Virus record (IMG/VR): IMGVR_UViG_3300023496_000090
Span: 1 to 5,876 of that record
Source: a virus
Length of the DNA: 5,876 nucleotides
Reading direction: 5' to 3' (one strand)
Part shown: positions 4,434-5,876 of the stretch, in pieces
Layout: each line of letters starts with the position of its first letter
How positions within the stretch are numbered: the stretch's first letter is position 1
Notes under the pieces: generated by a model
Seen by the model: only the letters and a program-made list of their open reading frames with translations
Databases searched by the model: none
What the model was told of the DNA's origin: nothing
Program-made: the position numbers and the translations under genes

Positions 4434-4460
4434 AAACCCGGAGTTGTCAACTCCGGGTTT
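4434..4460 (-). terminator. Rho-independent terminator between the 60-aa ORF and the peptidase gene
   Basis: The minus strand reads AAACCCGGAGTT GAC AACTCCGGGTTT followed by TTATGTT. It is a perfect 12-bp stem with a 3-nt loop running into a 5-T stretch, and it starts 3 nt after the upstream stop codon. Confidence 0.75.
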
Positions 4461-4673: not shown

Positions 4674-4702
4674 ATTTTATCATATTTTTCTGATTTTGTC
4701 AA
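4674..4702 (-). promoter_or_regulatory. Near-consensus sigma70/sigmaA-type promoter driving the minus-strand gene train
   Basis: The minus strand reads TTGACA (4702..4697), then a 17-nt spacer AAATCAGAAAAATATGA, then TAAAAT (4679..4674). The spacer ends in TGA, giving an extended -10 (TGnTAAAAT). It lies about 30 nt upstream of the first SD/ATG. Confidence 0.7.
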
Positions 4703-4731
4703 GATTTTTTTAGAAGAATTTTTCATTATAT

Positions 4732-4778
4732 GGCCGCTGTTGCGCGCTACGCGGCGCAACTTTCAGCGAAGCGCGGCC
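4732..4778. other. G+C-rich nested inverted repeats (structured ssDNA element)
   Basis: GGCCGC (4732-4737) pairs with GCGGCC (4773-4778). An inner hairpin pairs GTTGCGC (4739-4745) with GCGCAAC (4754-4760) around an 8-nt loop. The block is embedded in A+T-rich non-coding DNA. Confidence 0.6.
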
Positions 4779-4813
4779 GTAGCTTTCCCGTTCGATTCCG
4801 GATTGCTTCTATT

Positions 4814-4980
4814 AGTTTTCAACATTTTCAACATAGTTTTCAACATTTCAACATTGTTAAACTTTAACACAACAGAGTGTTTCAACTTTTCAACAAGTTT
4901 TCAACATAGTTTTCAACATACAATTATCCTTATTTATCACGTGATAACGTAGAATTATTCATACTTTCAACTTTTCCACA
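4814..4980 (+). repeat. Same-orientation array of TTTTCAACA(T) repeats (iteron-like, DnaA-box-like), ending in a TTTTCCACA box
   Basis: Exact TTTTCAACA occurs at 4816, 4825, 4837, 4887, 4898 and 4910. The 12-mer AGTTTTCAACAT occurs at 4814, 4835, 4896 and 4908. Degenerate copies are ATTTCAACA at 4845, TTTAACACA at 4863, GTTTCAACT at 4879 and CTTTCAACT at 4964. TTTTCCACA lies at 4972-4980. Spacing within the clusters is 9-12 nt. Confidence 0.9.
4934..4947. promoter_or_regulatory. Perfect 14-bp palindrome TTATCACGTGATAA (candidate dimeric-protein operator)
   Basis: The sequence equals its own reverse complement. It is located inside the repeat array region of the intergenic region. Confidence 0.5.
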
Positions 4981-4985
4981 TACCC

Positions 4986-5000
4986 TACTACTACTACTAC
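4986..5000. repeat. (TAC)5 trinucleotide microsatellite
   Basis: TACTACTACTACTAC, read directly from the sequence; it is non-coding. Confidence 0.9.
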
Positions 5001-5016
5001 AACAAGTTATATTATA

Positions 5017-5067
5017 ATACGTGCGCACGCGTGCGCGTGTAGCTTTTCGCGTGCACGTGTGTGCGCG
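5017..5067. other. Two perfectly alternating purine-pyrimidine, G+C-rich tracts (25 nt and 20 nt) containing a 14-bp perfect palindrome
   Basis: 5017-5041 (ATACGTGCGCACGCGTGCGCGTGTA) and 5048-5067 (CGCGTGCACGTGTGTGCGCG) alternate R/Y without a break. GCGCACGCGTGCGC (5023-5036) is a perfect palindrome. It extends to a 24-nt near-palindrome (5018-5041) if two G:T pairs are allowed. Confidence 0.85.
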
Positions 5068-5081
5068 ATTAGAATAATAAT

Positions 5082-5111
5082 GCCCAGTACCTTACTTGAT
5101 AGGTACTGGGC
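5082..5111 (-). terminator. Perfect 11-bp-stem hairpin directly downstream of the VP4 stop (terminator candidate; alternatively an origin stem-loop)
   Basis: GCCCAGTACCT (5082-5092) pairs perfectly with AGGTACTGGGC (5101-5111) around an 8-nt loop. On the minus strand the hairpin starts 13 nt after the VP4 TAA (5127..5125). It is followed by ATTATTATTCT, which is T-rich but not a clean T-run. Confidence 0.55.
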
Positions 5112-5124
5112 TAGGTGACACCGA

Positions 5125-5876
5125 TTATAAAATACCGCTCTTTTTTGTTTGTTTTTTCGTGACACGCTCTTTGGTCTCTAAGACGGTTTTATAATCTTGA
5201 TCCTCTAACTGTAGTCTCTTCTGCTGCATTGCGTTTTTTTGTCGGTTCTGTTTAATTCTCCACAATCTTTGTGGGTTTTCTGCTTCCATTTGTTTTTCAT
5301 AGTATCTTGGTATTTGTGCTCTTTTTCCGTTGGTACACTGAATGTAGCCTTGTCGCCAGATTTCTGCCTTGTGCTCTTGATAGTATTTATCTCCGAGCCC
5401 CGGCTTTAAGCTCATGCAAGCGAATGGTTTTGTTTGCCCTAGCTTGTAGTATGCGTTAGCTTTTTCACCGTTTATTTCGTACATTTTTTTTGTAACGTAC
5501 CCTGCAACATATCTATATGTTTCTGGTACTGCTTGTGCTATCTGGATTTGACCCATTCCCCAGAGGTCTGCTAGCCATTTACTGGTATAGTATCCGTTGT
5601 GGTGAATCTTGTATAGATTTTCTAGGTCTGTCGGTTTCCAGCCATATAGTATCATGTGGTAATGTGGTCTTGCTGTTTGTTCTCCGTACTCGCCCGCTAT
5701 AAAATAGCGTAATTTGCCCCTATAAGCCTTTCTGAGACGTTTTATAAACTTTTGAATATCTTCATACAGCAATATTTGAACACTGCTAGGCTGCTTCTCT
5801 CCCGGTTTCCACGTGTATTGTACTTTTCGCATGATTTCACCTGTTTTTACTATCATGCCTGGTACGTAGTCATCAT
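5125..5876 (-). CDS. Replication initiation protein VP4, C-terminal part (unique sequence 5125..5821; 5822..5876 duplicates 1..55)
   Basis: The HUH motif in ARPHYHMILYG has its H-Y-H codons at 5664..5656. The double-tyrosine catalytic motif is YVAGYVTKK, with the Tyr codons at 5511..5509 and 5499..5497, comparable to YVAKYVNK of the phiX174 A protein. The track's Met at 5856 is internal; the true start is at 323. Confidence 0.92.
   Translation of the reverse strand, partial: DDYVPGMIVKTGEIMRKVQYTWKPGEKQPSSVQILLYEDIQKFIKRLRKAYRGKLRYFIAGEYGEQTARPHYHMILYGWKPTDLENLYKIHHNGYYTSKWLADLWGMGQIQIAQAVPETYRYVAGYVTKKMYEINGEKANAYYKLGQTKPFACMSLKPGLGDKYYQEHKAEIWRQGYIQCTNGKRAQIPRYYEKQMEAENPQRLWRIKQNRQKNAMQQKRLQLEDQDYKTVLETKERVTKKQTKKSGIL

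Follow-up and report, generated by a model that had tools for sequence, protein, structure and literature searches.

Firmicutes origins of replication contain a basal unwinding system (BUS), exemplified by incC boxes 6 and 7 of Bacillus subtilis and by oriC2 of Clostridioides difficile, in which tandem co-oriented DnaA boxes are followed by a short spacer of GC type, then by three or more 3'-GAT-5' trios and by AT-rich DNA. The rules by which such units are found call for a box within the allowed mismatches, often a tandem second box, and at least three trios, among which 3'-GAT-5' occurs most often; the spacer may reach 16 bp including a GC-rich gap of about 4 bp on average (PMC8287927). In C. 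difficile oriC2, which lies in the dnaA-dnaN spacer, DnaA-dependent melting adjoins the trio sequence 5'-CACCTACTACTATTACTACTATGA-3' (PMC7561715). Here we describe a unit of closely similar build in the main intergenic region of a gokushovirus-type microvirus, IMG/VR record IMGVR_UViG_3300023496_000090. The whole 5,876-nucleotide (nt) stretch that was analysed is termed the window, and the unit, at positions 4816-5019 (about 205 bp), is termed the cassette.

Mobile elements that recruit host DnaA through boxes in their own origins have been described before, among them the plasmid and prophage origins P1 oriR, pSC101, F, RK2 and R6K (PMC10797057). In these origins a few DnaA boxes assist an element-encoded Rep that binds iterons, and no role for DnaA-trios or for DnaA on single-stranded DNA (ssDNA) has been shown in plasmids (PMC10797057). 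The microvirus would share the recruitment of DnaA with these replicons, and differs from them in having no separate iterons, an HUH rolling-circle Rep as its initiator gene and what appears to be the whole of a chromosomal unwinding module. Full-text searches of the literature returned no paper linking Microviridae with DnaA boxes, the papers that mention both microviruses and DnaA being unrelated, and no bacteriophage with oriC-like DnaA boxes; papers that mention DnaA-trios and phages describe no such element. A preliminary description of this DNA, which knew of no DnaA-box cluster reported from a microvirus, thus agrees with the literature searched.

Anatomy of the cassette

In the cassette, two clusters of co-oriented boxes of the type TTTTC[A/C]ACA are followed by a spacer and a tandem pair of boxes; after 4 nt more come five trios and then an AT-rich stretch. 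Its parts, in window positions, are as follows.

4816-4853, plus strand: putative DnaA-box cluster 1, with TTTTCAACA at 4816-4824, 4825-4833 and 4837-4845 and ATTTCAACA at 4845-4853
4855-4878, no strand: inter-cluster spacer, with the palindrome TGTTAAACTTTAACA at 4855-4869, which includes TTTAACACA at 4863
4879-4918, plus strand: putative DnaA-box cluster 2, with GTTTCAACT at 4879-4887 and TTTTCAACA at 4887-4895, 4898-4906 and 4910-4918
4919-4963, no strand: AT-rich spacer of about 45 nt, with the palindrome (inverted repeat) TTATCACGTGATAA at 4934-4947
4964-4980, plus strand: trio-proximal tandem box pair, CTTTCAACT at 4964-4972 and TTTTCCACA at 4972-4980
4981-4984, plus strand: 4-nt spacer TACC from the last box to the first trio, at the position of the BUS 'GC cluster'
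4985-4999, minus strand: five DnaA-trios, 3'-GAT-5' x5 (CTA x5 on the plus strand; Tandem Repeats Finder array at 4985-5000)
5000-5008, no strand: invariant, phage-specific CAACAAGTT directly after the trios
5007-5019, no strand: AT-rich stretch TTATATTATAATA, pure A/T, a candidate DNA unwinding element (DUE)

The 9-mer TTTTCAACA is present in six exact copies (starts 4816, 4825, 4837, 4887, 4898 and 4910), all on the plus strand and none elsewhere in the window. Only 0.13 copies are expected, and none of 200 shuffled sequences reached six. Four degenerate copies (ATTTCAACA, GTTTCAACT, CTTTCAACT and TTTTCCACA) have the same orientation, which bears out the count of six exact and at least four degenerate copies given in the preliminary description. 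The spacing of 9-12 nt given there is close to the measured one: start-to-start distances within the clusters are 8, 9, 11 or 12 nt. The ten boxes in the window compare with a mean of 10.4 per cassette in 63 relatives. A further one-mismatch variant proposed earlier, TTTAACACA at 4863, was dropped as a box because the palindromic spacer that holds it varies or is swapped out in relatives.

The last box, TTTTCCACA, fits the consensus TTWTNCACA completely, as had been noticed, but the unit extends beyond its end at 4980. Specifically, the plus strand runs from TTTCAAC-TTTTCCACA through TACC and (CTA)x5 to CAACAAG (5000-5006) and TTATATTATAATA. A single copy of the composite TTTTCMACA-N4-CTACTACTA is present, where shuffles predict 0.00. 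When the rules for a BUS are applied, TTTTCCACA provides the box within two mismatches of the species-specific consensus, CTTTCAACT immediately upstream provides the tandem second box in the same orientation, TACC provides a GC-type gap of 4 nt, and five perfect 3'-GAT-5' trios lie on one strand beside the box. The C. difficile trio sequence closely resembles TACC-CTACTACTACTACTA of the phage. The minus strand, which carries the trios, is the coding-sense strand and presumably the packaged strand.

The phage unit also differs from the Firmicutes BUS. It lies on a 5.8-kb ssDNA phage, between the Rep/VP4 gene and the late promoter, and not between dnaA and dnaN in an rpmH-dnaA-dnaN context; its boxes are TTTTC[A/C]ACA and not TTATCCACA; its AT-rich part is short and is preceded by the phage-specific CAACAAGTT; and the phage has no upstream box cluster of the rpmH-dnaA type. 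Going by its anatomy the cassette would work like a BUS, and by location it is not a chromosomal oriC.

Correspondence with bacterial dnaA-dnaN spacers

One genome per bacterial species was scanned for three copies of TTTTCAACA at short distances, which yielded at least 120 loci. Evidence independent of this query comes only from features outside it, namely the trios, the spacer, the layout, the dnaA-dnaN context and the DnaA recognition helix. Among the matches listed are 11 loci that have a dnaA homologue next to the array; their labels are Oscillospiraceae, Ruminococcus, Eubacterium or Eubacteriales without exception, and 10 of these 11 have a dnaN homologue at the opposite end of the array. 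Pfam searches were positive for dnaA in each of six loci and for dnaN in each of four. This position is that of the unwinding region of Firmicutes oriC. Microvirus VP1 or Rep/VP4 is encoded in none of the 120 genome loci among the matches listed, which rules out a prophage origin of the bacterial arrays.

Eight of the 11 host arrays end in features that were absent from the query and that have the order and orientation seen in the phage: a box, a 4-nt spacer, trios and AT-rich DNA. The array of locus L209 (numbers prefixed L are our own) ends in TTTTCCACAGTTTCAACA-tacc-CTACTACTACTACTA and then AT-rich DNA, where the phage reads TTTCAACTTTTCCACA-tacc-CTACTACTACTACTA; that of L214 ends in GTTTCAACA-gccc-CTACTACTACTACTA, again followed by AT-rich DNA. 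The box-trio spacer is tacc, gccc, cccc or tccc in the hosts and tact, gccc, ttgc or tcct in relatives of the phage, and it is 4 nt long in all phage relatives and host oriCs inspected except L232, whose proximal box is degenerate. Furthermore, the host oriCs have a tandem box pair at the position equivalent to that in the phage, (CTA)n after the last box and then an AT-rich stretch, and a spacer of length comparable to 4919-4963 in the same place. The phage cassette is colinear with the whole L276 host spacer (71% identity over 212 nt), and cluster 1 is 93% identical, with equal spacing, to the start of the dnaA-dnaN spacer in the Oscillospiraceae metagenome-assembled genome (MAG) L229. The Oscillospiraceae, Ruminococcus and Eubacteriales spacers L276, L209, L214, L219, L229, L232 and L252 thus have in common with the phage the 9-mer, its variant frequencies, the spacings, tacc or gccc, (CTA)4-5 and a colinear layout. 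They differ from it in having more boxes (7-37), some of them in reverse orientation, and longer AT-rich tracts, and in lacking CAACAAGTT and the GC-rich palindromes that flank the phage cassette.

The boxes themselves are also alike. Two frequency matrices, one built on 658 phage boxes and the other on 164 host boxes, are near-identical, position 6 being A at 0.83 and C at 0.14 in the phages and A at 0.86 and C at 0.12 in the hosts. In both sets TTTTCAACA is the top-ranked box and the next four variants are the same, and TTTTCCACA is among the two commonest boxes in the candidate host oriCs. The comparison with host-oriC boxes that the preliminary description had proposed, when run on these dnaA-dnaN spacers, therefore returned the same 9-mer and the same variant spectrum, and its proposal of a DnaA-box-like array in a microvirus is supported by spacers that are filled with the 9-mer and its variants and that share its ending.

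The DnaA proteins encoded beside the host arrays have an altered recognition helix. Nine of the 11 loci (L200, L207, L209, L214, L219, L221, L232, L252 and L276) encode RDHST(I/V)VY(A/S), whereas RDHTTV is found in every solved DnaA structure matched (B. subtilis, Escherichia coli, Mycobacterium tuberculosis and Aquifex). Relative to RDHTTV..HA of the B. subtilis and E. coli structures, Thr is changed to Ser and His to Tyr, and another residue takes the place of Pro in the SLPxIG turn. We take Thr435 and His439 to be residues that contact bases in the structure of E. coli domain IV with DNA; if this is right, the substitutions would fit an altered box preference, and the altered helix may account, in structural terms, for a DnaA box that is specific to the lineage.

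These features suggest that TTTTCAACA is the preferred DnaA box of the Oscillospiraceae/Ruminococcus lineage itself and not a degenerate one, because the same 9-mer, variants, spacer, trios and layout fill the oriC of that lineage. The earlier view of the 9-mer as one mismatch away from TT(A/T)TNCACA is recast accordingly: the mismatch is to an E. coli consensus, and the 9-mer would be the box favoured by the probable host lineage. Boxes of the TTTTCAACA type followed by CTA or TTA trios are also found in distant phyla, in two Mesoaciditoga MAGs (L228 and L267) and an Anaerolineae MAG (L205), and so the variant is not exclusive to Oscillospirales. In Mesoaciditoga two box-trio units face each other over an AT-rich stretch.

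The repeats are very probably DnaA boxes modelled on a host oriC. The cassette as a whole appears to reproduce the dnaA-dnaN half of the origin of its probable host lineage, the Oscillospiraceae/Ruminococcus group of Clostridia.

Conservation, inversion and the rival explanations

Retrieval by VP4 (82-95% identical) yielded 80 relatives, nearly all of which have 8-11 copies of the motif (at most one mismatch), with a single orientation throughout, in the 700 nt that follow VP4 downstream. The array is therefore neither absent from close relatives nor freely variable in them, either of which would have counted against the earlier proposal. The cassette is found in at least 132 distinct microvirus contigs whose Rep proteins are 37-95% identical, and distant members (VP4 37-54%, VP1 39-60% identical) share it at 68-82% nucleotide identity. 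It is also contained in 49 GenBank microvirus records, in almost all of which the region is unannotated. The number of distinct contigs, which are of microvirus size (mostly 4-6 kb), together with the GenBank records rules out a chimeric assembly with host DNA; many of the cassette-bearing contigs checked have terminal overlaps. Eleven listed contigs with a phage-type cassette are all microvirus-sized, and at least four of them share a contig name with loci already in the set. No box-plus-trio unit was found in non-microvirus contigs among those retrieved, and PLSDB plasmids returned no cassette, just short spurious Acinetobacter matches. The classical gokushoviruses phiMH2K, Chp2 and SpV4 have scattered, chance-level box matches and no trios, and hence gokushoviruses do not share the cassette in general.

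Which parts stay constant was read from an alignment of 63 distinct cassettes of the relatives. Invariance is highest (at least 97%) in CTACAACAAGTT and at the start of the trio run, over ten bases that comprise the first three trios and the following base. CAACAAGTT is likewise at least 97% invariant and is retained in distant relatives. Within the trio-proximal box pair, at least 90% of the relatives agree at most columns, the exception being the last base of the second box (about 60-70%). The AT-rich stretch is retained at the same position with a variable exact sequence, and variation is free in the spacers and in the promoter region alongside: the spacer at 4919-4963 changes in sequence and keeps a roughly constant length, and the inter-cluster spacer at 4855-4878 is variable or, in other sub-clades, replaced by another.

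This pattern bears on the main rival explanation, in which the cassette is a DnaA sink, corresponding to the titration of host DnaA suggested in the preliminary description. About ten boxes on a multi-copy replicative form would only soak up host DnaA, with no initiation on the phage DNA, and would thereby block or delay initiation of the host chromosome or DnaA-controlled checkpoints such as entry into sporulation. Box regions of B. subtilis oriC that are cloned on plasmids do inhibit chromosomal initiation, hence their names incA, incB and incC; the phage has ten boxes per genome of the same type as host oriC boxes, and a sink is by nature independent of orientation, as is seen for the cassette (see below). 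However, a sink of this kind, like datA, needs boxes alone, and conservation of the cassette is strongest in its trios, in the exact distance of 4 nt from box to trio and in its AT-rich stretch, which together reproduce an unwinding module. We consider a pure sink unlikely.

Variation within the boxes is informative as well. Homologous boxes alternate among TTTTCAACA, TTTTCCACA and TTATCCACA between relatives, and so the variation does not leave DnaA-box space; L096, a distant relative, has TTATCCACA, the canonical DnaA box, as the homologous box of cluster 2. A different host oriC protein could bind the repeats, for example Spo0A, through which sporulation would be sensed by the phage, as it is by phi29. 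The candidate host group includes many spore formers, and TGTTGAA, the reverse complement, differs in one base from what we take to be the 0A box, TGNCGAA, a match at six of seven bases. Nevertheless, conservation spans the full 9-mer, including positions 2-3, which lie outside this 7-mer, the alternative forms TTTTCCACA and TTATCCACA come closer to a DnaA box and fit a 0A box less well, and a box 4 nt from trios is the defining DnaA arrangement. Recognition by Spo0A or a similar protein is consequently a very improbable explanation.

The preliminary description had also suggested iterons for VP4 or for one of the small orphan proteins. Direct repeats in the main intergenic region, beside the Rep gene of an ssDNA replicon, do recall the iterons that adjoin the nick site in CRESS-DNA viruses and rolling-circle plasmids, and the HUH Reps of other ssDNA replicons bind iterons. 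Such iterons normally co-vary with their Rep, and they are not host origin sequences. In contrast, the 9-mer spectrum of the phages is constant while Rep diverges to 37% identity, the small open reading frames (ORFs) adjoining the cassette differ among relatives, and identical boxes and trios occupy bacterial dnaA-dnaN spacers that are free of microvirus genes. The repeat is thus not one that is specific to, and co-varies with, its own initiator, and we give the iteron proposal almost no credence.

The orientation of the cassette provides a further line of evidence. In 17 of the 132 contigs, belonging to several lineages (L026, L045, L059, L084, L181, L193, L327 and L350 among them), the cassette is inverted relative to the coding strand, and the inversion takes along the boxes, the trios, CAACAAGTT and the AT-rich stretch together. 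The motif CTTGATAG of a hairpin that follows the Rep gene (see below) never flips relative to Rep: it is present in six of the 17 inverted genomes, and the exact 8-mer is absent from the other 11. In L026, L045 and L059 the GC-rich flanks, compared by eye, are oriented as in relatives with a normal cassette; the inverted cassette is bordered by gcgctgtgcgcg, and on its other side by palindromes of the cgcgcgtgcgcg type in L026 and L059 and by none in L045. The bordering GC-rich sequences might mediate the inversion. When folded as ssDNA, the array and the trio region are no better than shuffles (z -0.9 and +0.5), and the boxes, being all co-oriented, are unable to pair together. Because the cassette inverts while the hairpin motif stays fixed, and because the array is unstructured as ssDNA, a function at the level of the duplex, on the double-stranded replicative form, is favoured.

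The same observations argue against the cassette as a strand-specific ssDNA signal, whether a primosome site with a DnaA-box hairpin, a complementary-strand origin or a Rep nick site. The best-known case of the first kind is the A site of the R6K ABC primosome, an ssDNA hairpin holding a DnaA box, which works only if the box lies in a duplex stem and on a given strand. The earlier suggestion of a DnaA-dependent primosome role follows this model: a box on the incoming strand would recruit DnaA for complementary-strand synthesis, so that DnaA would again serve a replicon with a single-stranded stage. The majority orientation, which includes that of the window, does place the trio strand (5'-TAG-3' repeats) on the coding-sense strand. 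However, folding gives no support to ssDNA hairpins presenting boxes, the boxes cannot pair with one another, and the packaged strand would hold the complement in 17 of 132 genomes, which makes this role scarcely tenable. The coding-strand reading of the invariant region, ATAACTTGTTGTAG, recalls what we take to be the phiX174 origin, CAACTTG^ATA; a Rep nick site within the cassette was rejected on account of the 17 inverted genomes.

Inversion also speaks to transcriptional control, by which DnaA, a transcription factor in Firmicutes, would act on the promoter at 4702-4674 and tie expression of the lysis and structural genes to the replication or growth state of the host. The array is located about 115-280 nt upstream of this near-consensus promoter, which points away from it. 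Yet inversion swaps the end of the cassette that faces the promoter and inversions persist in several lineages, the trios and the AT-rich element are superfluous for regulation, and promoter-proximal sequences differ widely among relatives where the cassette does not. We regard this possibility as highly unlikely.

We put the probability of the full reading, that sites for host DnaA form an oriC-mimicking cassette whose action includes unwinding or initiation, at roughly 0.6. From the architecture, the conservation, the match to host oriC and the independence of orientation we infer a course of events in which DnaA-ATP would occupy the boxes on the double-stranded replicative form and would spread from the trio-proximal box onto the 3'-GAT-5' trio strand. 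The adjacent AT-rich DNA would be opened by this action, and the helicase-loading machinery of the host would enter at the opened DNA. The replicative form would then be copied in a theta-type manner, or at least opened, by the chromosomal initiation pathway of the host, beside the HUH Rep rolling-circle system of the phage. Of the theta-type maintenance of the replicative form suggested in the preliminary description, action on the duplex (theta-type initiation or opening) is thus the part favoured by the host-oriC-like module and the inversion data.

Several points weigh against this reading. Rep-dependent rolling-circle replication is already complete in microviruses, and a second, theta-type route is not obviously needed. 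Firmicutes oriC usually also needs a box cluster upstream of dnaA, and the phage has the downstream-type module alone. The AT-rich element beyond the trios is only 13 nt of pure A/T, with CAACAAG between it and the trios and GC-rich DNA bounding it. CAACAAGTT has no counterpart after the trios of host oriCs, and may bind a further host or phage factor. On the host side, many of the at least 120 loci are labelled Oscillospiraceae, Ruminococcus or Eubacteriales, but the loci were ascertained by the motif itself and label counts therefore give no taxonomic enrichment. Just 11 of the 120 matches listed have dnaA within the retrieved flanks, and L201, L225, L263, L268 and L297 are coding tandem repeats and not origins. 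Finally, the host assignment has neither a CRISPR-spacer match nor prophage support.

Genome context and meaning for microvirus biology

The genome is circular (5821 nt), positions 1-55 of the window being repeated exactly at 5822-5876 as a 55-nt terminal direct repeat, and the window is cut inside the VP4 gene. Every sizeable ORF lies on the minus strand and matches microvirus proteins. The nearest public records (about 72-75% nucleotide identity) are gokushoviruses from faeces of human, pig, monkey and other mammals. The cassette is housed in the single large non-coding region, 5124-4656, which is bounded by the VP4 stop codon and the near-consensus promoter. The genes and the elements flanking the cassette are listed below.

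1204-320, minus strand: VP2 pilot protein, by microvirus protein match
2917-1244, minus strand: VP1 major capsid protein (Phage_F, E = 3e-135)
3479-2904, minus strand: VP3 scaffold protein, by microvirus protein match
4373-3990, minus strand: M15 peptidase, by protein match
Minus strand: two small orphan ORFs
4674-4702, minus strand: sigma-70-type promoter, TTGACA, 17 nt, TAAAAT, with a TG extension (11 of 12 matches)
4730-4800, minus strand: left flank, a GC-rich element between cassette and promoter, from reading of the sequence
5020-5068, no strand: right flank, two GC-rich palindromes in which purines and pyrimidines alternate, CGTGCGCACGCGTGCGCG ... CGCGTGCACGTGTGTGCGCG, from a repeat search
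5082-5111, minus strand: 11-bp stem-loop right after the Rep stop codon (fold z -5.7; loop ACTTGAT on the plus strand)
5125-5876, minus strand: 3' part of the Rep/VP4 replication initiator (phrog_942, PF23343); the full gene is 323-1 and then 5821-5125

Read across the circular junction, VP4 has 339 aa, and its translation contains the HUH motif HYHMIL and the tyrosine motif YVAGYVTKK. The promoter points toward ORF63, the peptidase and the structural genes, and a Shine-Dalgarno-like AGGAAGG lies downstream of it. Shine-Dalgarno-like motifs before several phage genes and the sigma-70-type promoter would fit a Firmicutes-like host.

The GC-rich element at 4730-4800, a candidate complementary-strand origin, folds no better than shuffles (z -0.7), and relatives have it in at least four alternative versions. 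Its sequence GTTCGATTCC resembles a tRNA T-loop, but a tRNA or other known RNA was set aside, as ARAGORN found no tRNA there and Rfam returned just two sub-threshold chance matches, to SorY and mir-3149. On the right, most relatives have a comparable GC-rich palindromic block beside the AT-rich stretch. The palindromes at 5020-5068 likewise fold no better than shuffles and could form a cruciform or Z-DNA. The stems of the hairpin at 5082-5111 have compensatory changes in distant relatives (L096, L138 and L155), with CTTGATAG kept. Its 8-mer ACTTGATA is identical to what we take to be the nick region of the phiX174 origin, here on the non-coding strand. The hairpin is terminator-like; it could act as a terminator, serve as a recognition site for Rep, or do both.

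Elsewhere in the genome, a perfect 12-bp hairpin (AAACCCGGAGTTGTCAACTCCGGGTTT) with a terminator-like score on both strands lies at 4434-4460, between the 63-aa ORF and the M15 peptidase gene, and the relatives L001 and L021 contain a comparable ccggagttgtcaactccgg. The Rfam match to SorY, at 241-306, is weak and sub-threshold (27 bits against a gathering score of 111); it stems from a hairpin within the VP4 coding region and is probably due to chance.

The cassette appears to be a known kind of element, a BUS, in an unexpected carrier. Microviruses are the textbook case of Rep-nicked rolling-circle replication, and a module for host DnaA would add a second step to their life cycle that depends on the host initiator. 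It could serve to replicate or open the duplex form, to set up a carrier state, or to control the cell cycle of the host. More tentatively, and less likely than not, a whole lineage of mammalian-gut gokushoviruses may have captured, or convergently rebuilt, the DnaA-dependent unwinding half of a Gram-positive host origin, and may replicate or maintain its duplex as a DnaA-controlled mini-chromosome. If that is true, these phages would have a plasmid-like carrier state that is coupled to the cell cycle without integration, and they would be the first viruses known with a complete chromosomal-type origin module of boxes, trios and DUE.

The lineage-specific box TTTTCAACA and the altered DnaA recognition helix would be of use for origin prediction in gut Clostridia, and the compact cassette of about 200 bp, which is found in either orientation, could be a minimal test bed for BUS function. 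If the more tentative reading is true, the box type would also serve as a sequence 'barcode' that places uncultured phages with Oscillospiraceae/Ruminococcus hosts. The resulting prediction of Gram-positive hosts from this group for abundant uncultured gut phages is testable. It is notable in view of a 2022 survey, in which only two complete microviral prophages were found in Gram-positive genomes and were called the first cases of microviruses in Gram-positive bacteria (PMC9239249). The cassette suggests that the phage borrows the switch with which its host starts replication, and that it indicates which bacteria the phage infects.

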